In this document: one piece after another, positions 1,160 through 63,760 of the stretch | Position numbering within the stretch: the first letter of the stretch is position 1 | How the letters are laid out: each line of letters starts with the position of its first letter | Virus record (IMG/VR): IMGVR_UViG_3300049170_000080 | Location: 888-64,887 of that record | DNA length: 64,000 nucleotides | Origin: a virus | Taxonomy: Duplodnaviria; Caudoviricetes | Direction: 5' to 3' (one strand) | Program-made: the position numbers and the translations under genes | Notes under the pieces: model-generated | What the model was told of the DNA's origin: nothing | The model's database searches: none | Seen by the model: only the letters and a program-made list of their open reading frames with translations

Positions 1160-1851
1160 GGCGCACCGAGCATCTCCTTGCCCACCACTGGCGTGGCATC
1201 GCCACGCTGTGCGCGATTGTCGCCCTCTTCGGGATTGCTGCGCTCCTGTGGGCGCGCGTCGACAGCACGGACCGGGAGTCGGCGCGCAAGGCGCAGCAGC
1301 TTGCCGCAGAGGCAGACCTGCGCGGCCAGGCCGTCGCCACGCTGGCCACCGACGTCCGCCGCCTCCGTACGCAGATCAAGTCCGAGGGGAAGACGCCGGT
1401 AGCGCCGGACCCCACGAAGGCCGTGGACGACCTCCCCGAACGGGCCGCCGTACCGGTGCCCCTGCCGGGGGAGAAGGGCGACAAGGGCGACAAGGGGGAC
1501 CCGGGTAAGCCCGCGCCCACCATCACCCCGTCGCCGGGCGCCTCCGGCCAGCCGGGCCAACCCGGCCAGCCGGGCCAGGAGGGACTGCCGGGCAAAGATG
1601 GCGCGGACGGCCAGGACGGCCAGGACGGAGCGGACGGCCAGGACGGGCAACCGCCCGCCGGGTGGATGTACACCGACGCCCAGGGCACCAAGTACGACTG
1701 TCGGCCCGTCGACAACTTCGATCCCGACGCCCCCCGATACACCTGCACCGCGGTGTCGTCCGAGGAACCGGAACCGTCCACGCCTCCGCAGAACCCCAAC
1801 TCCAACGGCATGAACCTGGCCGTCCTCGCCCCCGACCGCCGCCGCTACTGA
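1156..1851 (+). CDS. Membrane-anchored collagen-like protein
   Basis: GTG at 1156 overlapping upstream TGA; TM segment, coiled coil, G-X-Y repeats (GDKGDKGD, GQPGQPGQ, GQDGADGQ). Confidence 0.75.
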   Translation: MRRTEHLLAHHWRGIATLCAIVALFGIAALLWARVDSTDRESARKAQQLAAEADLRGQAVATLATDVRRLRTQIKSEGKTPVAPDPTKAVDDLPERAAVPVPLPGEKGDKGDKGDPGKPAPTITPSPGASGQPGQPGQPGQEGLPGKDGADGQDGQDGADGQDGQPPAGWMYTDAQGTKYDCRPVDNFDPDAPRYTCTAVSSEEPEPSTPPQNPNSNGMNLAVLAPDRRRY

Positions 1852-1864
1852 AGGGCAGACGCTG

Positions 1865-3136
1865 ATGACCACGGTGAACGGCAAGCTGATCGGGGCGGCC
1901 AACCCGGAGCGGGTGGAGATGGTCGCCAACCTCGTTGACGTCACCGGCAAACCGGCGGTCGGCTACGTGCCCACCCAGGACGGTGAGATCGTCCGCCCGG
2001 TCCCCATCCAGGCCAACAGCAGCGGCGTGTGGACGGTCACCCTGACCGCGAACACCCTGATCGAATCGACGTCGGGGGACACCCTGTGGGCCGTACAGGA
2101 AGGCCGCGCCCTCGACGGCACCCCCGTCCTCACCCACATCCTCGTCCCCGAAGACGAAGGCCCGTGGTGGGTGGGCGACCTGCGCATCGACCTATCCGAC
2201 ACCACCACCGGTGACGGCAGCATCGTCTACGTGCCCGGGCCCGCCGGACCAGCAGGCCCTGCAGGTGCGACCGGGCCGGAGGGACCCGCCGGAGCGGCAG
2301 GCGCGGCCGGCGCCACGGGCGCGTCAGCGTACGAGGTGGCCATCTTGGAAGGCTTCACCGGCACCGAAGCCGACTGGCTGGCCTCCCTCACCGGCCCTCA
2401 AGGCGCGGCCGGGCCCGCCCGCCCAGGCCTGCTCAGCGTCAACGCCCAGCCCGACAACAGCCTCGGCATCGACGGAGACTGGGCCATCTCCCCCGGGGAA
2501 CGCCGCATCTACGGCCCGAAGACCGCAGGCGCCTGGACGGTGTGGTCCCGGATCGACCCACCCACCGAACCCGGCTGGCAGCGCAACGGCTTCGCCACCC
2601 TCGACGGCAGCGACCTGTATCTCACCCACGCCGCGGACGGCTTCGGTGCGGGCACCTGCTGGCGCACCACGCTCGCCCCCACCGAGGGCCTCGACGTGTC
2701 CTTCACCGCCGAGATGTCCGGCGGCACCGGCGCCGACGGCATCACCTTCGCCCTCGCCGACCCCGCCACCGCAGCCACCTTCCAAGGCGGCGGCGGAGGC
2801 GACCTGGGCCTGGTCGGCTGCGCCGCGGCCGCGCTCGCCCTCGACACCGGCGCCGGATCCCGGGCCCGCCTCGTCACCACCACCGAGACCGCGATGACCA
2901 CCATCGCCACCTACGGCGGCGCCCTGGACCTACGCGCCGCACCCGTCCAGGTCCGCGTCCTCTACCAGGCAGGCAAACTGTCCGCCTGGCTGGACGGCAC
3001 CCTGCTGTTCGACGAGGTGACCGTGGCGGCGGCCGCGAACGCCCGGATCGGCTGGACGGGCTCCAACGGCGGCGCCAACGACAACCACATCATCCGCGAC
3101 GCCGCCTTCGTCCCCAAGGGCGGCATCCAACTCTGA
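1865..3136 (+). CDS. Collagen-repeat protein with C-terminal L-type (ConA-like) lectin domain; possible fibre/adhesin
   Basis: GPAGPAG repeats; GADGITFAL, GGDLG, ALDT, IGWTGSNGG..NHII pattern typical of legume-lectin fold. Confidence 0.65.
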   Translation: MTTVNGKLIGAANPERVEMVANLVDVTGKPAVGYVPTQDGEIVRPVPIQANSSGVWTVTLTANTLIESTSGDTLWAVQEGRALDGTPVLTHILVPEDEGPWWVGDLRIDLSDTTTGDGSIVYVPGPAGPAGPAGATGPEGPAGAAGAAGATGASAYEVAILEGFTGTEADWLASLTGPQGAAGPARPGLLSVNAQPDNSLGIDGDWAISPGERRIYGPKTAGAWTVWSRIDPPTEPGWQRNGFATLDGSDLYLTHAADGFGAGTCWRTTLAPTEGLDVSFTAEMSGGTGADGITFALADPATAATFQGGGGGDLGLVGCAAAALALDTGAGSRARLVTTTETAMTTIATYGGALDLRAAPVQVRVLYQAGKLSAWLDGTLLFDEVTVAAAANARIGWTGSNGGANDNHIIRDAAFVPKGGIQL

Positions 3137-3145
3137 GCGGCCGGC

Positions 3146-3886
3146 TCAGGGCGCCACACGTCCGTTCGCATTGAAGGCCGCGTAGGTGAGCGGCATCAGC
3201 TTGGCCCACTCCGCCTCCATCTTTTCGCCCACCATCTCGATCTCCCGCTGCGGGAAAGACGGGACCTTGGCCAGCTCGTGCTGGGTGCGCAGGCCGAGGA
3301 AATGCATCAGCGAGCGGGCGTTGCAGGTGGCGTACATGGAGGAGTACAGGCCGACGGGGAGCACCGCGCGGGCGACCTCGCGGGCAACACCGTCCTCGAT
3401 CATCCGCTGGTAGGCCCTGTACGCCAGGCGGTACCCCGCGGTCATCCGTCGTGATGCGGTGTGGCGTAGGGCGTCACTTCCCGCCTCGAAGCGGTACTGA
3501 CCGGGCTTGCCGACCTGCACCAGCTTGCGGTCGGGGCCGGGGACGTAGAAGACCGGCTGGAGCTCCCGGTACCGGCCCGACTCCTCGTTGTAGGACCAGC
3601 CGACGCGGTGCCGCATGAACTCCCGGAAGACGAAGATCGGGGCGCTGATGAAGAAGGTCATCGAGTTGTGCTCGAACGGGCTGCCGTGCCGGTCCCGCAT
3701 CAGGTAGTTGATCAGGCCCTGGGAACGCTCGGGATCCTTGCCCAGCTCCTCCAGGGACTGCTCGCCGACGGTGGAGACACGGGCGGCCCACAGCACGTCC
3801 GTATCAGCCGCGCTGTGCTTGACCAGCTCGACTGTCACGTCGCTGCGGAAGATGGGGTCGATTGCATCGGCGGGGGCGTGGGTCAC
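3146..3886 (-). CDS. thyX: FAD-dependent thymidylate synthase
   Basis: RDRHGSPFEH and RHRVGWSYNEESGRY (ThyX motif); GTG start at 3886 preferred over the longer ORF call. Confidence 0.95.
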   Translation of the reverse strand: MTHAPADAIDPIFRSDVTVELVKHSAADTDVLWAARVSTVGEQSLEELGKDPERSQGLINYLMRDRHGSPFEHNSMTFFISAPIFVFREFMRHRVGWSYNEESGRYRELQPVFYVPGPDRKLVQVGKPGQYRFEAGSDALRHTASRRMTAGYRLAYRAYQRMIEDGVAREVARAVLPVGLYSSMYATCNARSLMHFLGLRTQHELAKVPSFPQREIEMVGEKMEAEWAKLMPLTYAAFNANGRVAP

Positions 3887-6421: not shown

Positions 6422-7273
6422 GTGGCTGACTGGCATGATCGGGGCATGGTTGAAGCCGCACGTTATCCCGACTACCTGCACAAGACGGCGGAAGCTGTTG
6501 CTGCATTCCGCGACGCCTTCGTCGACTTCTTGTCTCTGCACGAGGAGATGACAGCATCAGGATTCGCGCGTGGCATGGCGCCCGCTGTGGAGCCTCGCGA
6601 TGACGTGGATCCGGCCGACATATCGGCGGCAGCCGCACGGGTCTCTCGGGCAGCAGGTCGCGCTCTGTATGCACCGACTCTGACTGGCACCCTTATTCAG
6701 GTGGAGGGCAAGCCGAAGCCTGTTGACCCGATCGCGGCTTGGCGCTCGGTCACGTTGCCGAAGCCGCTGCTGGAGCCTGGTGACGTGATCGACGCAGCCG
6801 AGCAGATTCTTGGCCGGCTGGAGGCCATGGAGATGAAGGCGACCGCTGAACTACCACCAACCAGCGGGGTCGAGGCCCTTCATCCGTCAATCTGGGGGCC
6901 GGCGGGCAAGCTGTGGCGGGACGGACACTTCCGATCCGCTGTGCATTCAGCCGCGGAGGCCCTAACCGCCCAGCTCAGGACTCGGGTCGGACAACCGGGC
7001 CTGGATGCTACTGCTCTCTACGGGAAGATCTTCTCTGAGAGGGACCCACTCTTGCAGTGGCCAGGCGATCCGACCGATTTGACTGTGAAGTCGATGCGCG
7101 CCGGGTTGGGGAAGTATGCGACCGGCGTCAACATGACGGTCAGGAACACCGCGGCTCATGGGACGGCAGAGATGTCGGCGCAGGACGCGATGGAGCGCCT
7201 TGCTGCGTTGAGTCTCTTGGCGCGATGGATCGACGAGTGTGAAGACATCTCCTCACCGGAGAATCGCTCCTGA
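6422..7273 (+). CDS. TIGR02391/Ymh-type HEPN-domain protein
   Basis: LHPSIW..LWRDGHFRSAV..A..RNTAAH (Rx4H)..A.ERLAALSLLARWID; codon usage less GC-skewed than neighbours. Confidence 0.75.
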   Translation: MADWHDRGMVEAARYPDYLHKTAEAVAAFRDAFVDFLSLHEEMTASGFARGMAPAVEPRDDVDPADISAAAARVSRAAGRALYAPTLTGTLIQVEGKPKPVDPIAAWRSVTLPKPLLEPGDVIDAAEQILGRLEAMEMKATAELPPTSGVEALHPSIWGPAGKLWRDGHFRSAVHSAAEALTAQLRTRVGQPGLDATALYGKIFSERDPLLQWPGDPTDLTVKSMRAGLGKYATGVNMTVRNTAAHGTAEMSAQDAMERLAALSLLARWIDECEDISSPENRS

Positions 7274-13422: not shown

Positions 13423-14454
13423 ATGGCGCAAGCCGCCGAGGCCCCCGCCAGCACGACGGCGGAGGGCCCCACCTCGCACACCCAAAATCAGGACGACGGG
13501 TTCGACTTCGTGGACGCAACGCGACCTGCGACGAACGCTTTCATTGCGCTGACCGGGCCGGCCAACTCGGGGAAGACCTACACCGCTTTGGCCATGGCCA
13601 CGGGGATGGGCACCCGGATCGGGGTGTGTGACACCGAGCGCGGCCGCGCCAGCCACTACGCCGGCTTGTTCCCGTTCAAGCATCTGCGGATGCCGGACTT
13701 CCGCCCTCAGACGCTGGTGCGGGCCCTGGCCGTAGGCGCCCGGCGCGGCATTGACGTGATGATCATCGATTCGGGGACGCACTACTGGTCCGGCCGGGGC
13801 GGCGTCCTCGAGCAGGTCGACCGCACGACCGAGGCCTCGCGGTCCAAGAACGCGTTCACGTCCGGCTGGAAGACCATCAAGCCGGTCGAGCACGAGATGT
13901 GGGACGCGATCATGGCGTACCCGGGGCACGTCATCATGACGCTGCGGGTCAAGACCGCCTACGAGCTCGTGTCCAACAAGCAGGGCGGCGTGGAGCCGAA
14001 GAAGCTCGGGCTGAAGCCGGACCAGCGGGCCGATGTGGAGTACGAGTTCGACTTCGTCGGCGACCTCGACATGGAGCACACGATGACCGTGTCGAAGTGC
14101 TCGTACCCGGACCTGTTCGAGTCCGGGGAGCGGATCGAGATGCCGAACACGGAGACCGGCCACCGGATCGTGAAGTGGCTGGGTGAGGGCACGCCGATGC
14201 CGACGGTGCAGGACTACGTCGAGCGGGTCATGCAGCCCGAGATGACGTACGAGCAGCTGCTCGGCCTGTACCAGGGCGAGCTGTCCCAGCGCGGTCTGCT
14301 CGGTGCTGCCCTGTTTGCCCCGGACACCGGGGAACAGACCACCCTCGGCGGGCTGATCGCCCGTATCGGCGGTGCACGCAAGGCGGCCGCCGAGAGCGTG
14401 ACTGCGCCGAGCCACGCCGCTCAGGGCGGCCCCGGGGAAGGGCAGGCGGCCTGA
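13423..14454 (+). CDS. AAA-family ATPase (Sak4/AAA_24-like phage recombination protein)
   Basis: Walker A GPANSGKT, CDTERG, Walker B MIIDS, YEFD motif. Confidence 0.8.
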   Translation: MAQAAEAPASTTAEGPTSHTQNQDDGFDFVDATRPATNAFIALTGPANSGKTYTALAMATGMGTRIGVCDTERGRASHYAGLFPFKHLRMPDFRPQTLVRALAVGARRGIDVMIIDSGTHYWSGRGGVLEQVDRTTEASRSKNAFTSGWKTIKPVEHEMWDAIMAYPGHVIMTLRVKTAYELVSNKQGGVEPKKLGLKPDQRADVEYEFDFVGDLDMEHTMTVSKCSYPDLFESGERIEMPNTETGHRIVKWLGEGTPMPTVQDYVERVMQPEMTYEQLLGLYQGELSQRGLLGAALFAPDTGEQTTLGGLIARIGGARKAAAESVTAPSHAAQGGPGEGQAA

Positions 14455-43652: not shown

Positions 43653-44465
43653 TCAGGCGGTGATGATCCAGCCGGACGGGGTGCGGGTGGCGGCGATGCG
43701 CCCGGTGGCGGCCCATCGGCGCACGGTGCGCGGGGAGACCTTGGCGTGTCCGGCGTAGGCGGTGGTGGACAGCCCCGCCGGGCCGTCGGTGACGGGAATG
43801 GTGATGGTGACGACGCCGGTGGTGTCCTGCTCCGCGGCCTGCACGGACGACGTCTCGGCGTTGGTGTCGGCGGTGTCGGCGATGGTGTGGCCGTGCTCGG
43901 CCAGCGTGCGGTCGATGTCCGCGAGCTGGGCCACAAGCTGCTCCCGCCTGGCCACGAGGGCGTCGATGTCGATGGTGGAGCCGACGATGGTCAGCCCGGG
44001 GAGGTCGTCGGAGACGGCGGCGCGCGGGATGTCACGGACCTCGATGACGGTGTCGTTCTCCGGTTCAAGCGCCGGGTACTTGGTGCTGCCGCCGCTGTAG
44101 GCGAAGCCCCCGCTGATGAGGACGACGTTGGAGCCGAGGCGGACTGCTTCGTCTCGGAAGCGCCGGGAGGCGACGACGCGCCCGGCGAGGAAGAGCTCGT
44201 TGTCGCCCTTGGTGTGCCCGAAGCGGCTGATGTTCCAGCGGACGGTGACGAGGTCGGCCTGGTCGGTGGGGCTGCCGTCGGTGCCGTAGATGTCGCGGAG
44301 GAGTTCGCGCAGGCGCTCCTCGTCGCGGGGGTCGAAGGTCCACTGGCGGTGGCCGCTGTCCCAGCGTCCGCCCATGGCCTTGGCGTCGGCGACGAAGTCG
44401 GCGTTGTAGGGGCTGGTGACGGCGAGGCGTCCGTTGGTGAGGGTGGTGATCTGGATGTCGCTCAT
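43653..44465 (-). CDS. Protein with DUF5710-like N-terminus and C-terminal HTH
   Basis: SPYNADFV..AKAMGGRWD..W; LSTTAYAGHAKVSPRTVRRWAATG. Confidence 0.65.
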   Translation of the reverse strand: MSDIQITTLTNGRLAVTSPYNADFVADAKAMGGRWDSGHRQWTFDPRDEERLRELLRDIYGTDGSPTDQADLVTVRWNISRFGHTKGDNELFLAGRVVASRRFRDEAVRLGSNVVLISGGFAYSGGSTKYPALEPENDTVIEVRDIPRAAVSDDLPGLTIVGSTIDIDALVARREQLVAQLADIDRTLAEHGHTIADTADTNAETSSVQAAEQDTTGVVTITIPVTDGPAGLSTTAYAGHAKVSPRTVRRWAATGRIAATRTPSGWIITA

Positions 44466-44510
44466 GAGTGCTTCCCGTCGTCGGGGCGGGGACCTGTCCC
44501 CCCGCGTTGT

Positions 44511-44546
44511 GTATGAGAAGCATACGCGAATGTATGCGTGCCATAC
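44511..44546. promoter_or_regulatory. Tandem operator GTATG-N5-CATAC x2
   Basis: 44511-44525 and 44532-44546, 21 bp apart, upstream of the HTH gene pair. Confidence 0.7.
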
Positions 44547-44593
44547 AAGGGGTTGCGTGAGGAAGACCCCCCAGCCGGAGGGCCCTCATCAAC

Positions 44594-44743
44594 GATCACA
44601 CCCCCGCGAGTGCGGGGAAAGAAGCAACGAACCAGGTCAGGAACGGCTCGTTCATCGGAACACCCCCGCAAGTGCGGGGAGCACAGCGGCCATCCGCTAC
44701 TAAAGGGCGGGCCACGGGCCATCCCCGCAACTGCGGGGAACGC
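44594..44743 (-). CRISPR. Type I-E-like CRISPR mini-array, 3 repeats / 2 spacers, no cas genes in window
   Basis: 29-bp repeats at 44594, 44656, 44715; middle copy on minus = GTGCTCCCCGCACTTGCGGGGGTGTTCCG; all have CCCCGC-N4-GCGGGG stem; spacers 33 and 30 bp. Confidence 0.8.
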
Positions 44744-44812
44744 CGCCCGGTCTCCCCGGCGGCCCGACCACTATGGCATCCCGCACTGACAACGCGCAGG
44801 GAAACAGAGAAG

Positions 44813-44828
44813 CCCCGTCGCGACGGGG
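44813..44828. terminator. Terminator-like palindrome
   Basis: CCCCGTCGCGACGGGG downstream of minus-strand operon. Confidence 0.5.
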
Positions 44829-45273: not shown

Positions 45274-45551
45274 GTATCCGCTCCGGGCACGCGCAGCCAC
45301 TGCGGCGGCTCGACAAGGCACGGCACCGTGGCCTGGCTGGTGACCGGTCCGGAAGCGTCCGGGTCGCTGAGGATGTTCCCGGTGCGCTCACACCGGACGT
45401 ACCCCGTGTACTGGATGACCTGCTGTCCGTCGTGTTCGGTGATGCGCAGGCCGGAGTCGTGGAGCGGAACGGTGAGGGGGTCGATGCCGTTGGCGGTGAG
45501 CCATTCACACAGGGCGAGGCGCTCTTCCTCCGTGGGGCGGGCGACGGACAT
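45270..45551 (-). CDS. Hypothetical protein
   Basis: Overlapping stop/start at both ends. Confidence 0.6.
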   Translation of the reverse strand: MSVARPTEEERLALCEWLTANGIDPLTVPLHDSGLRITEHDGQQVIQYTGYVRCERTGNILSDPDASGPVTSQATVPCLVEPPQWLRVPGADT

Positions 45552-45976
45552 CAGGCGCTGGCCTCCTCGGGAGCGGCCGCGGTGAGTCGGCTCTTGCTGC
45601 GGTGTAGGGGTGTGGTGGCGATGTCGCCGGCGGCTTCCTGCTCGGACAGCAGGTAGTAGGTCTTCCCGCCGTCGGTGGAGAACGCCTCCGAGTGGCGCTT
45701 CGACTGCCAGAGCGGTGTCTGCGTCAGCCCTTCGGCGTGACGGTCGATCCATTCGTTGGGGTCGTCGGTGAGGTCGGAAAGCGGCTGGTATCGCAGCAGC
45801 TTGTCCAGGTGCATGGCGGCGTGGAAGGCGCTGCTGCCGGAGTGGCCCATGTCAGCGAAGGCTTGGACGACGCGGCACAGGCCGCGGATGGTGTCGGGGT
45901 CTTCGCCGATGAGGCGGAGTTCGCGTCGGGCGTGGGCGACGAGGCCGGACTCTGCTTTGCGGGGTGCTGGGGGCAT
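45551..45976 (-). CDS. Conserved phage hypothetical protein
   Basis: LVAHARREL..FADMGHSGSSA..PLSDLTDDPNEW..WQS.R..AFSTDGGKTY. Confidence 0.7.
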   Translation of the reverse strand: MPPAPRKAESGLVAHARRELRLIGEDPDTIRGLCRVVQAFADMGHSGSSAFHAAMHLDKLLRYQPLSDLTDDPNEWIDRHAEGLTQTPLWQSKRHSEAFSTDGGKTYYLLSEQEAAGDIATTPLHRSKSRLTAAAPEEASA

Positions 45977-46076
45977 GCCGTCTACGGTCCCGCGGTTTGC
46001 GCGGAAGGTTCCCCCGGGTTGGGGAGGCCCGGCCGGTGCTGGGGGCACGCGGCCGGGCCGGTCTTCATGGTGCGGT

Positions 46077-46295
46077 CTATCCCCAGGTGCTGTCGCGGGG
46101 TGCGACTCGGTCGGTGCCGGAGTCCCCCGACCCGCTGTCGTCGCTGTCGTCGGTGGTCGGGGTGGTGGTGTCGGGTGCGCCCCAGGTGGAGTCGCCGGCC
46201 GGGGCGGCGATCGGCAGGTCGGCGAGGGCGTAGCCGGTGGCGGCGGTGGCGGTGAGGGCGATGGTGGCGGCGAGACGCTGGAGGCGTTTGTGCAT
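46077..46295 (-). CDS. Secreted peptide precursor with duplicated DSTWG motif
   Basis: aaagggga RBS; 72 aa; signal peptide MHKRLQRLAATIALTATAATGYALA; GDSTWG internally and RDSTWG at the C-terminus. Confidence 0.8.
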   Translation of the reverse strand: MHKRLQRLAATIALTATAATGYALADLPIAAPAGDSTWGAPDTTTPTTDDSDDSGSGDSGTDRVAPRDSTWG

Positions 46296-46582
46296 GGTGG
46301 TTGGTCCCCTTTCCGGGTGGTCAGGTCGTGTTTCGGGGACAGCATTGTGGGGCGTCGGCCCGCTTCTCGTTCCCTGTTCCTGCTGCGAATCCCTCAACTG
46401 GCTGTGTTTTCCTGGCAGTTAGACACAACCGGTCATGGGGAGGATGGGGAGTACGAGCGTCGGGGGACGCCCCGGGACCAATTTGCCTTAGGCTGATTTC
46501 GCTCTCAACCGTTCTCGACTGCGTATTGCCGCATTGCGCGCGTACGCAGGGCGGGGGCCTGTTTTGACGGGGGATCGGACCT

Positions 46583-47665
46583 TTGGCCATAGATATCGGA
46601 ATGGGTGACAGGGAGTTCCTGTCCGCTGCCGCGATCCGAACGTTTGGCCTGATCGCACGTGGTGAACGCGTCCCCGCCGAGTGTGCGGATTATGTTGCGG
46701 AACTCGTCGAGTGGGGTGTCGTCACCCTGGACACCGGCGATGAAAACAGACCGGTGGCGCTCAACCCGCACGAAGCCGCCCAGCGGCGTATGACGGACAG
46801 GCTGAAAGAGGCTGCCAAGCGGGTCGCGGAACTCAGTCAGCTCCCTGAGATCACGGGCCGTCTGGGCGAGCTGTACGAGCAGGGGCAGGCCCGTACGACG
46901 GGCGGATCCGAATACCTCGACGACCCTGCAGTTGTGAACGCCCGCCTCGACGACGTGATCGCCGGCGCACAGACGGAGCTGCTGACCGCGCAGCCGGGAG
47001 GGCCGAGGAACGAGGAACAGCTGAATCGTTCCCTCGAGCGGGACACCGCCGCGCTGGACCGTGGGGTGGTGAAGCTGACCTTGTACCGGGCGACGGTGCG
47101 GGACAACCCGGTGACGGCGGAGTACGCGCGGGCGATGTCGAACCGCCCGTCGGGCAAGTGTGCCGAGTTCGGCACCCTCGTGGGCCCGTTCGAGCGGGCG
47201 ATCATTGTGGACCGGCGGGTGGCGTTCATCTCCAACCACCTGGTCGAAGGGGCGCCGCCGCACGCGGCGTGGCAGGTCACCGACCCGGCGATGGTCGCCT
47301 ACATCGCGGCCGAGTTCGATGACCGGTGGCGGCGCGCGGACCCCTGGCACGGGGAGATGCGGGCACGGGGGCAGCACGGCGTGGACACCGTCTCCAGCGT
47401 GGACGGGATCCGTACGACGCGACGGCAGCGGGAGATCATGCGGGACATGGTCGCCGGCCGGGACCAGCGCGCCATCGCGGGCCGCCTCGGGGTATCCGTA
47501 CGTACCGTCTCCGACGAGATCAACGCACTGCGGGATCTGTTCGACGCGTCGTCGCGGGAGCAGTTGGTGTACAAGTGGGCGTTCTCCGCGGACCGGATCG
47601 TCGATGACAGCACCGACGCGCTCGGCGGCGGCCCGGGGGCCGGCCCGGTCAACGCGGTCGCCTGA
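46583..47665 (+). CDS. LuxR-type regulator with N-terminal wHTH-like and central TrmB/PLD-like sensor domain
   Basis: ERAIIVDRRVAFI central motif; TRRQREIMRDMVAG..IAGRLGVSVRTV LuxR HTH; start TTG 46583 or ATG 46601. Confidence 0.85.
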   Translation: MAIDIGMGDREFLSAAAIRTFGLIARGERVPAECADYVAELVEWGVVTLDTGDENRPVALNPHEAAQRRMTDRLKEAAKRVAELSQLPEITGRLGELYEQGQARTTGGSEYLDDPAVVNARLDDVIAGAQTELLTAQPGGPRNEEQLNRSLERDTAALDRGVVKLTLYRATVRDNPVTAEYARAMSNRPSGKCAEFGTLVGPFERAIIVDRRVAFISNHLVEGAPPHAAWQVTDPAMVAYIAAEFDDRWRRADPWHGEMRARGQHGVDTVSSVDGIRTTRRQREIMRDMVAGRDQRAIAGRLGVSVRTVSDEINALRDLFDASSREQLVYKWAFSADRIVDDSTDALGGGPGAGPVNAVA

Positions 47666-62566: not shown

Positions 62567-63760
62567 ATGCTCGCCGAAGTGCAACACGCGGTCGAACGGG
62601 TGCCCGTGCTCGCATGGGCCACCCTCCTCCCCCTGATCACCCTCGCCTTCGGATACCGGATCGCCCGGAAAACCGACCCCCGCGCCACCTCCCGCAAGCC
62701 CCGCGACAAGGCCAAGCGCCGCACCCTCACCGGCCTCCTCGGCATGGGCCTCGTCGTCACCGCCGGCCTCGCCCTCTCCACCAACACCAGCGCCCGCTTC
62801 GCCCTCACGCGACTCCACATGGACTCGCCCTGGCACATGACCATCGGCCTCGCCCTGGAAGCAATCGTCCTCGGCCTGTCCGTCTACTCCTGGGCCTTCC
62901 ACGACAAGAGCGTCGCCCGCGTCGTGTACGCCCTCGTCCTCGCCCAGGCCATCGGCGCCGTCGAAGTCACCAGGTTCGAAGGCGAGGACCTGGGCACCGC
63001 CCTCGTCCGCATCGTCGGCCCGGTCATGCTTGCCTACGGCCTCCACAAGCTCCTTGGCCTCGAGTCCAAGCTCGGCAAGATCGAGATCAAGTCCGACGGC
63101 ATCCTCGCCCGGCTGTGGACCGATCAGAAGAACCGGCTCGAGAGCCGACTCGGCATCGGCTCCCGCGGCGCCGACGCGGCCGCGATTTCCCGCGCCAACG
63201 CCGCCGACAAATTCGTGCACCTGAATTCCGTCGGAAAGCCGCGCCGCATGTCCGACCGCGCCTACCGCAACGCCCTCGTGAAATCCGGCCGGGCCGCCCT
63301 GCACGGCCTGGAAGGGATTGAGCGGCAGATGGCGGAGGCCCACCTCGTCGACCGCATCGCCTACGAGAAGGGCATGCAGCTCGGCGGCGACCACTTCGAA
63401 ACCGCCCTGATGCGAGGGGTGCGGTCGAACACCGGCACAGCAGGAACGGACGCAGCTCTTCCGTATGGGATGGGCTTTCTGGCCAGCGCGGCTACCCAAG
63501 CCGCACCCTCCGGCCACACCGCAGACACAGCCGAGCCGCACAGCGACAAGCCGCAGCCGCGTTCGAACCCCGCCACAACCGACGCCGAGCGCAAGGCCCG
63601 CGCCTTCCGCGTCTACGCAGACCTCGGACAGCCCTCCCAGCGCGCCTTCATCAAGGAATGGCGCGACCGCAAGTACGGCGAAACCGACCAGACCCTCCGC
63701 GAGCTCTACAACGAAATGCACGAGGCCTTCGAGAAGGCGCGGAAGGGAAACACCGAATGA
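62567..63760 (+). CDS. SpdB-like multi-TM plasmid spread protein candidate
   Basis: Four to five TM segments, VRIVGPVM..LH..LGLE motif resembling Streptomyces Spd proteins, C-terminal HTH-like tail. Confidence 0.5.
   Translation: MLAEVQHAVERVPVLAWATLLPLITLAFGYRIARKTDPRATSRKPRDKAKRRTLTGLLGMGLVVTAGLALSTNTSARFALTRLHMDSPWHMTIGLALEAIVLGLSVYSWAFHDKSVARVVYALVLAQAIGAVEVTRFEGEDLGTALVRIVGPVMLAYGLHKLLGLESKLGKIEIKSDGILARLWTDQKNRLESRLGIGSRGADAAAISRANAADKFVHLNSVGKPRRMSDRAYRNALVKSGRAALHGLEGIERQMAEAHLVDRIAYEKGMQLGGDHFETALMRGVRSNTGTAGTDAALPYGMGFLASAATQAAPSGHTADTAEPHSDKPQPRSNPATTDAERKARAFRVYADLGQPSQRAFIKEWRDRKYGETDQTLRELYNEMHEAFEKARKGNTE

Follow-up and report, generated by a model that had tools for sequence, protein, structure and literature searches.

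A cas-less cluster of type I-E repeat units on a Streptomyces phage-like element as a candidate RNA counter-measure to CRISPR

The locus and its surroundings

The DNA analysed here (the window, 64,000 nt) is nearly all of a 64,887-nt IMG/VR virus record, which is linear and about 72% complete. Because the record holds a tail-fibre-like gene, an integrase, ParA, a DnaB helicase and a DNA methyltransferase, it is, judged by its gene content, a temperate phage or phage-plasmid of Streptomyces phage-like character. In a 505-nt gap inside a series of minus-strand genes lies an array of three repeat-like units. Is there any cas gene to go with it? The preliminary description of this DNA had called the array an orphan, and had named a complete cas operon elsewhere on the element as the finding that would make it an ordinary array remnant. 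The orphan status is confirmed for the window, where all eight Cas proteins of the Streptomyces plasmid pM92 gave a best E of only 0.12 in tblastn. As for the rest of the element, the Pfam models of Cas6e and Cas7e had no match across the 64,887-nt record, so that no co-resident cas gene was found in the roughly 72% of the genome that it represents.

Upstream of the array, on the same strand and 0.8 kb away, is a Tad3-domain gene (45551..46000, minus strand; Pfam PF25185). The domain covers about 45634-45946 with an E of 6.5e-30 and 103.8 bits against a cut-off of 27, and the reading frame is backed by the GC3 profile. We take this domain to be the family of type I Thoeris inhibitors, that is, an anti-Thoeris protein. 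A longer ORF was called at 45551-46345, whose true start is probably internal, near 46000; from about 46320 to 46100 another frame appears coding by GC3, and it is the small secreted-peptide ORF of the preliminary description. Going toward the array, the Tad3 gene is followed by a small ORF, a 116-aa ORF with no informative family and no informative atlas neighbour, and a terminator-like hairpin (44813..44828, minus strand; CCCCGT-CGCG-ACGGGG and then a T-rich tail) which ends this upstream operon.

Downstream of the array is a 270-aa gene (43653..44465, minus strand) with a C-terminal BldC/MerR-like HTH. A peptide-pattern search found no relatives of it among viral or genome contigs; a homologue is present on an Actinacidiphila plasmid, where it is flanked by two clusters of I-E-like units. 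Two palindromic operator-like sites (44531-44547 and 44511-44525, minus strand) stand before the gene. These palindromes, TGTATG-N5-CATACA and GTATG-N5-CATAC, overlap a possible TTGTAT-18-TATGCT promoter of the HTH gene within 44511-44547, and a comparable pair is found upstream of the homologue on the plasmid (3005-3050). From the sequence, the palindrome pair and the HTH gene likely form an autoregulated, Aca-like arrangement. There is also a hairpin GCGGGG-N8-CCCCGC in the 5' UTR of the gene (44486-44505). Its stem halves are those of the units but exchanged, its loop has 8 nt, and the plasmid shows it conserved (about 2975-3000).

Repeat units, leader and pseudo-spacers

The hairpin CCCCGC-N4-GCGGGG occurs exactly three times in 64 kb, and all three copies fall within 44602-44738. 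Their stems begin at 44602, 44664 and 44723, giving stem-to-stem spacings of 62 and 59 nt. In dinucleotide shuffles the window holds 0.13 exact hairpins on average and none of 100 shuffles reaches three, while the same hairpin with two mismatches is not enriched elsewhere in the window (29 found, 38.6 expected). The spacing yields 29-nt units at 44594-44622, 44656-44684 and 44715-44743, with intervals of 33 nt (44623-44655) and 30 nt (44685-44714) between them; the three 29-bp repeats and the spacers of 33 and 30 nt in the preliminary description are therefore reproduced. Each unit has the structure of a type I-E repeat, namely 29 nt with a CCCCGC/GCGGGG stem of 6-7 bp and a 4-nt loop. Folded alone, each forms a 7-bp hairpin, at -17.5 kcal/mol for R3, -14.0 for R2 and -13.2 for R1 (z -2.4 to -3.4).

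On which strand should the units be read? Their flanks were compared with those of 36 recurrent Streptomyces I-E repeats, whose stem is identical to that of the units. On the minus strand R3, R2 and R1 agree at 10, 11 and 6 of 13 flank positions, and on the plus strand at 6, 6 and 4. Random flanks reached at least 10/13 in 4 of 2000 trials and 11/13 in none of 2000, and the 6/13 of R1 is at chance level. Since the flanks of R3 and R2 match host repeats on the minus strand only, the units are, on sequence criteria, CRISPR-derived and of type I-E, with the minus strand as the canonical one and R3, R2, R1 as the order of reading. The earlier assignment to type I-E with divergent flanks thus stands (the units are 72-78% alike over 32 nt), and its plus-strand orientation has to be reversed. 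In this direction the first unit, R3 (44715..44743), has a 5-nt 5' part, CCCCGC-AGTT-GCGGGG and the 8-nt handle ATGGCCCG; R2 (44656..44684) consists of GTGCT, CCCCGC-ACTT-GCGGGG and the handle GTGTTCCG; and the last unit, R1 (44594..44622), keeps an intact hairpin between degenerate flanks, with the handle GTGTGATC, and resembles a terminal repeat.

How close are these units to host repeats? Over the whole unit the best identities to sampled host repeats are 23/29, 25/29 and 21/29, with R2 sharing 25/29 with the array repeat of one host locus (L164) and having the same GTGTTCC handle as the array of another (L165). The handle of R3, ATGGCCCG, is identical in 7 of 8 positions to ATGGCCCC, which host arrays and host crRNA-like genes have as their handle. 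The host consensus, from 80 Streptomyces I-E loci and pM92, is [C/G]TGCT, the stem-loop and ATGG[T/C]CCC, with some variants; the handles of the units end in G and the sampled Streptomyces repeats in C. Against plasmids, blastn aligned 44599-44739 to a genuine I-E array on pM92, which adjoins cas2e-cas1e-cas6e. Rfam gave nothing at its gathering thresholds for the region, the best entry at E up to 10 being CRISPR-DR10 with 13 bits. Folded as a whole, the region does not stand out (z -1.3), since its near-palindromic stems are able to pair among themselves. The 12 stem bases are invariant across the three window units and four units of a related viral contig (L079), while loops and flanks vary; as read from this alignment, it is the part bound by Cas6e that is under selection. 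The cluster differs from a bona fide array, for which near-identical repeats, a constant 61-nt period and unique spacers of 32-33 nt are expected: its units are 72-78% alike, with periods of 62 and 59 nt and spacers of 33 and 30 nt, whereas host arrays have near-identical repeats at periods of 61-62 nt.

Just upstream of the first unit is a 26-nt leader motif (44753..44778, minus strand), conserved with L079. The window at 44720-44778 and L079 at 3796-3853 are 81% identical, and L079 is the only other IMG/VR contig in which the motif was found. The leader contains an extended -10-like sequence, TGcCATAGT, with its hexamer at 44770-44775, and is a putative promoter; a consensus sigma-70 scan found no two-hexamer promoter for the array. 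No terminator follows R1 in the window, unlike in L079 and in the Actinacidiphila plasmid. The stem of the terminator-like hairpin at 44813-44828, CCCCGT/ACGGGG, is a compensated variant of the repeat stem, and the same variant is present in the crRNA-like genes of two host loci (L161, L162). On its 5' side it has GCGTC, similar to the GCGTT of R3. By this resemblance, the hairpin may be a fourth, decayed unit reused as terminator.

The two intervals are here called pseudo-spacers. Pseudo-spacer A (44685..44714, minus strand, 30 nt) repeats at its start 7 nt of the handle before it (TGGCCCG). Pseudo-spacer B (44623..44655, minus strand, 33 nt) has the canonical I-E length, begins with ATG and contains an internal hairpin of 8-9 bp. 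Both had been said to fold. Only B folds unusually well (-10.3 kcal/mol, z -2.8, equalled in 3 of 200 shuffles); the fold of A is ordinary (z -0.8, 35 of 200). B also opens an ORF of 20 codons, stop included, with high GC3, which runs through R1 to a TGA (44595-44655, minus strand) and has a G-rich stretch 7 nt upstream; the ORF may be coincidence.

What could the pseudo-spacers target? As reported before, the window itself holds no protospacer, and no second copy of A or B was found in it at up to three mismatches. The matches to phages and plasmids that the preliminary description suggested looking for did not appear: in databases that are themselves incomplete, A and B had no protospacer above chance in GenBank phages or PLSDB plasmids and none in IMG/VR (exact patterns with every sixth base free), and none above chance in five related virus records and three plasmid records. 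B had none in metagenome contigs, none in 401 Streptomyces genomes (25 specified nt, up to three mismatches), and none in 251 Streptomyces genomes when its 16-nt seed was required to follow an AAC PAM. It had also been proposed that the spacers are aimed at host cas promoters. This did not hold in 80 Streptomyces I-E loci, a single clade fetched with the pM92 Cas7e protein: seed plus AAC PAM gave 0 matches for A and B, and a partial-match scan of the same cas loci did no better than reversed controls. Two further candidates were rejected. Local alignments of A and B to the creA and creT regions, as expected of mimics of the host regulator or cas promoter, scored no higher than shuffles, and the score of A as a host regulator guide that has decayed was reached by 187 of 300 shuffles.

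Related arrays, host regulators and type I-E pressure

Is the window's array a singular case? In IMG/VR, at least 119 contigs have two I-E stems at a distance of 40-49 nt. Among the clusters listed, about half are regular arrays and the rest are small clusters of unlike units; many of the listed high-GC contigs have 2-7 divergent units, often 3-7, at an irregular spacing of 42-66 nt, and several end in a terminator. Neither Cas6e nor Cas7e was found in three of these listed viruses, which are 94-100% complete. The contig L079 is a mosaic relative of the window with which it has the leader in common. In its array, five units are separated by 33, 19, 20 and about 13 nt, and a strong terminator comes behind them. 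The leader is conserved between L079 and the window, and the spacer content differs. There is no sign of mutual targeting, because the 33-nt guide of L079 has no match in the window. Directly upstream of the L079 array (1521-2569, plus strand) are two NUDIX-domain genes, one of them HTH-fused, which may be further counter-defence genes.

The Actinacidiphila glaucinigra plasmid NZ_CP109145 (L002) carries homologues of the window's 270-aa and 234-aa genes, and on both sides of them a cluster of three I-E-like units (1427-1590 and 3590-3730, plus strand). Each cluster ends in a terminator, and both open with the same ATGGCCCG handle as R3. Two complete 156-kb phages have orthologous arrays of at least five units (L074, 2814-3060, plus strand; L108, 5768-5990, minus strand). 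Guide 1 of these arrays copies the guide of the host regulator described below. Between them the first 16 nt of the 32-nt guide 3 are kept with only position 6 differing, and the distal half has diverged. In terms of sequence this is a seed-only constraint, the pattern of a functional seed.

The 12-nt core common to L079 and L074 was the route to a set of host regulators. At least 16 of the 80 Streptomyces I-E loci have a two-repeat crRNA-like gene in the gap between cas3 and casA, antisense to the cas genes (L126, at 6825-7222 on the minus strand; L132, L133, L156, L160-L162, L168, L175, L178, L180, L184, L185, L193, L196 and L203). These genes have the handle ATGGCCCC or ATGGTCCC and a guide of 20-33 nt. 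Each of these guides has a counterpart site at a distance of about 320 nt: of the guide's first 14 nt, with positions 6 and 12 left aside, 10-12 of 12 agree with the site, and the site always has an AAC PAM. In L126, for example, it includes both the ATG and the ribosome-binding site of a hydrophobic two-helix ORF of 69 aa (6993-7202). By sequence and layout the host elements are of the known CreR/CreA type, a CreTA/CreR-like safeguard module.

Phage guides were then compared with these sites. Guide 1 of L074 agrees with the target sites of L126 and L133 in 12/12 positions. Guide 3 of L079 agrees with the target of L180 at 11/12 seed positions and is the same as the opening 12 nt of the host guide in L180. 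Because their guides match host regulator guides or targets, the arrays of L079 and L074 are, as far as sequence can define them, viral crRNA-like 'Cracr' arrays in the published sense. The guides A and B of the window are not, on the same sequence definition, because neither matches a host crRNA-like guide or a site in the cas loci.

Does the element family meet type I-E systems at all? We compared 3045 host spacers, from the 80 Streptomyces I-E loci and the pM92 array (L001), with the window. Three protospacers with an AAC PAM were found, at 13471-13500 (29/30, to a spacer of L156), 63531-63561 (29/31, L202) and 47287-47314 (25/28, L131, with the mismatches at codon third positions). In all three the C of the PAM is the last base of the host repeat, and the best match of reversed spacers was 26/30, obtained once. 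Since Streptomyces I-E arrays hold spacers against it, the element family is, by these matches, under type I-E attack from Streptomyces, and Streptomyces with I-E systems are its hosts.

Explanations and known systems

What, then, does the array do? We think it somewhat probable that the locus is an RNA counter-measure to type I-E CRISPR, a virus-borne, cas-less array of the Racr/Cracr kind. The reasons for this suggestion are the invariant stems, the host-like handles and the conserved leader on a cas-less carrier under I-E attack, together with the anti-defence neighbour and the relationship to L079, whose array copies a host regulator. In this scenario the array would be read on the minus strand from the short leader, which is conserved and may act as promoter, into a transcript of about 200 nt that is predicted to form three Cas6e-type hairpins. 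Cas6e cuts at the 3' base of the repeat stem. Cuts by the host enzyme at each stem would thus release two crRNA-like RNAs, in which an 8-nt 5' handle is followed by a middle of 30 or 33 nt and then by a 3' hairpin. These RNAs would compete with host crRNAs, some of which target the element family as the spacer matches indicate, for Cas6e and Cascade subunits, and I-E interference would be weakened. The guide segments may also steer Cascade to some site, as is done by one unit of L079, which, to judge from its seed, evidently guides Cascade to the target of the host crRNA-like regulator. The mode may be occupation of Cas6e and Cascade alone, as with Racrs, or guiding as well, as with Cracrs. 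A decoy or regulatory role rather than recent adaptation had already been favoured in the preliminary description, and the divergent units, the missing protospacer, the pseudo-spacers of L079 and the anti-defence neighbour agree with it. Several points run counter to the counter-measure reading: A and B, at 30 and 33 nt, come near real spacer length and match no host crRNA-like guide or cas-locus site in the 80 loci, the sigma-70 scan gave no two-hexamer promoter, the units are clustered where Racrs are solitary, no terminator follows R1, the handles end in G, and the neighbouring Tad3 gene acts on Thoeris and not on CRISPR.

Could the array instead be a working mini-CRISPR array, which borrows host Cas6e, Cascade and Cas3 against competing phages or plasmids in superinfection exclusion? 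Both RNAs would have the full crRNA anatomy of handle, spacer of 30 or 33 nt and 3' hairpin; a spacer of 33 nt is usual in Streptomyces I-E arrays, real arrays likewise have a degenerate last repeat, and the leader is kept while spacers differ between the window and L079. Superinfection exclusion of this kind has been shown for archaeal viruses. Viral mini-arrays are moreover an established class (PMC11656645). The published ones have repeats identical to those of the host, however, and here R3 and R2 reach 23-25/29 to host repeats while the units are only 72-78% alike among themselves. Spacer A is 2 nt short and has a handle copy at its start. Searches of GenBank phages, PLSDB, IMG/VR, metagenome contigs, five related viruses and Streptomyces genomes yielded no protospacer, and the spacers of relatives, at 13-20 nt, are too short for interference. 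This explanation, the chief rival, is weakened by the non-identical repeats, the missing protospacer and the short intervals in relatives, and we consider it rather unlikely. Some of the same features, namely divergent repeats, the lost flanks of R1, an A that resembles scrambled repeat material with a duplicated handle, and the absence of a known target for A or B, would also fit a decaying remnant of a host I-E array or an older viral one, acquired by recombination and drifting without function; the missing terminator behind the array and the mosaic relation of the element to L079 fit it too. Against such drift, 36 of 36 stem positions are intact in the three units despite the divergence of flanks, the upstream leader is kept in L079, which is only distantly related and mosaic, arrays of this design are present in many cas-less viruses among the matches listed, and the orthologous pseudo-spacers of L074 and L108 hold the functional-seed pattern. 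Loss of function is thus improbable in our view.

There is a further question of whether the hairpins have anything to do with CRISPR, for they might be tandem GC hairpins that act in the leader of the 270-aa HTH gene, where they would terminate transcription, stabilise the RNA or bind a protein. They do lie in the 505-nt gap upstream of that gene and on its strand, its homologue on the plasmid is also near such hairpins, and another GC hairpin is present in its 5' UTR. Yet stem sequence, loop length, a period like 61 nt and 10-11 of 13 flank bases match I-E repeats, and there is no T-run behind the stems. Structural hairpins tolerate compensatory changes in the stem, whereas here the stem sequence itself is fixed. 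A CRISPR-unrelated origin is therefore very unlikely. One more reading deserves mention, though we give it only a small chance: units with a 'GTGT-N-CCG' handle and a full-length guide (guide B of the window, guide 1 of L079 and guide 3 of L074/L108) might be a separate class of phage guides which reprogram host Cascade. Their targets would lie outside the CRISPR locus, in another defence system or a rival element for example, and the seed-only constraint between L074 and L108 would speak for silencing instead of cleavage. Some units of such an array would be decoys and others guides with new targets, which would make it a multiplexed phage tool.

How does the locus compare with known systems? 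Type I-E Cracr arrays with 2-3 pseudo-spacers are published, with viral guides of 17-24 nt and the criterion that at least 9 PAM-proximal nt are shared with a host CreR/CreA guide or promoter target (Liu et al., bioRxiv 10.1101/2024.10.29.618823). Like them, the array in the window has a cas-less phage or plasmid as carrier, at least two non-identical units of type I-E with different intervening guides outside a cas locus, and anti-defence genes around it, and its relative L079 copies a host guide seed. Unlike them, its guides of 30 and 33 nt match no host crRNA-like guide or cas/creT promoter in 80 loci. Racrs, whose class includes RacrIE1 and RacrIE2, are solitary repeat units, and the survey that found them left out repeats lying within 100 bp of another (Camara-Wilpert et al. 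2023, PMC10651486). The array shares with them that it mimics the repeat of a CRISPR subtype present in hosts of its virus and that it lies by counter-defence genes, and by analogy Cas6 and other subunits would be bound in useless complexes. It differs by having three units 59-62 nt apart with spacer-like intervals, where Racrs are solitary by definition, and an anti-Thoeris (Tad3) gene rather than a known acr as neighbour. Viral mini-arrays resemble it in their one or two spacers, the lack of cas genes and use of host machinery, similar size and a conserved leader; most of their spacers match related viruses and their repeats are identical to those of the host (PMC11656645), and neither holds for the window. 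Mini-arrays of the CreR/CreA type are known from I-E loci, where they lie between cas3 and cas8e (Shmakov et al. 2023, PMC10120712). Their layout of two repeats and one guide with a degenerate distal repeat recurs in the window, but they are inside cas loci and their seed matches an AAC site about 320 nt away, whereas the window is viral and has no such match.

The concept is already published in the form of Racrs and I-E Cracr arrays, and the locus is, as its sequence presents it, a new example in a Streptomyces phage-like element. If active, it would be an RNA-level anti-CRISPR of a Streptomyces temperate phage or phage-plasmid, placed beside a protein inhibitor of Thoeris in a compact multi-system counter-defence island. 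To our knowledge, the interplay of CRISPR and phages in Streptomyces has been little studied. A ready test set is at hand in the host I-E loci with crRNA-like regulators and AAC-flanked targets over a small hydrophobic ORF, and in the phages L074, L108 and L079, whose arrays copy host guides. Since the principle is known from the published systems, the value of the locus lies in a new example and in a Streptomyces model system for them.
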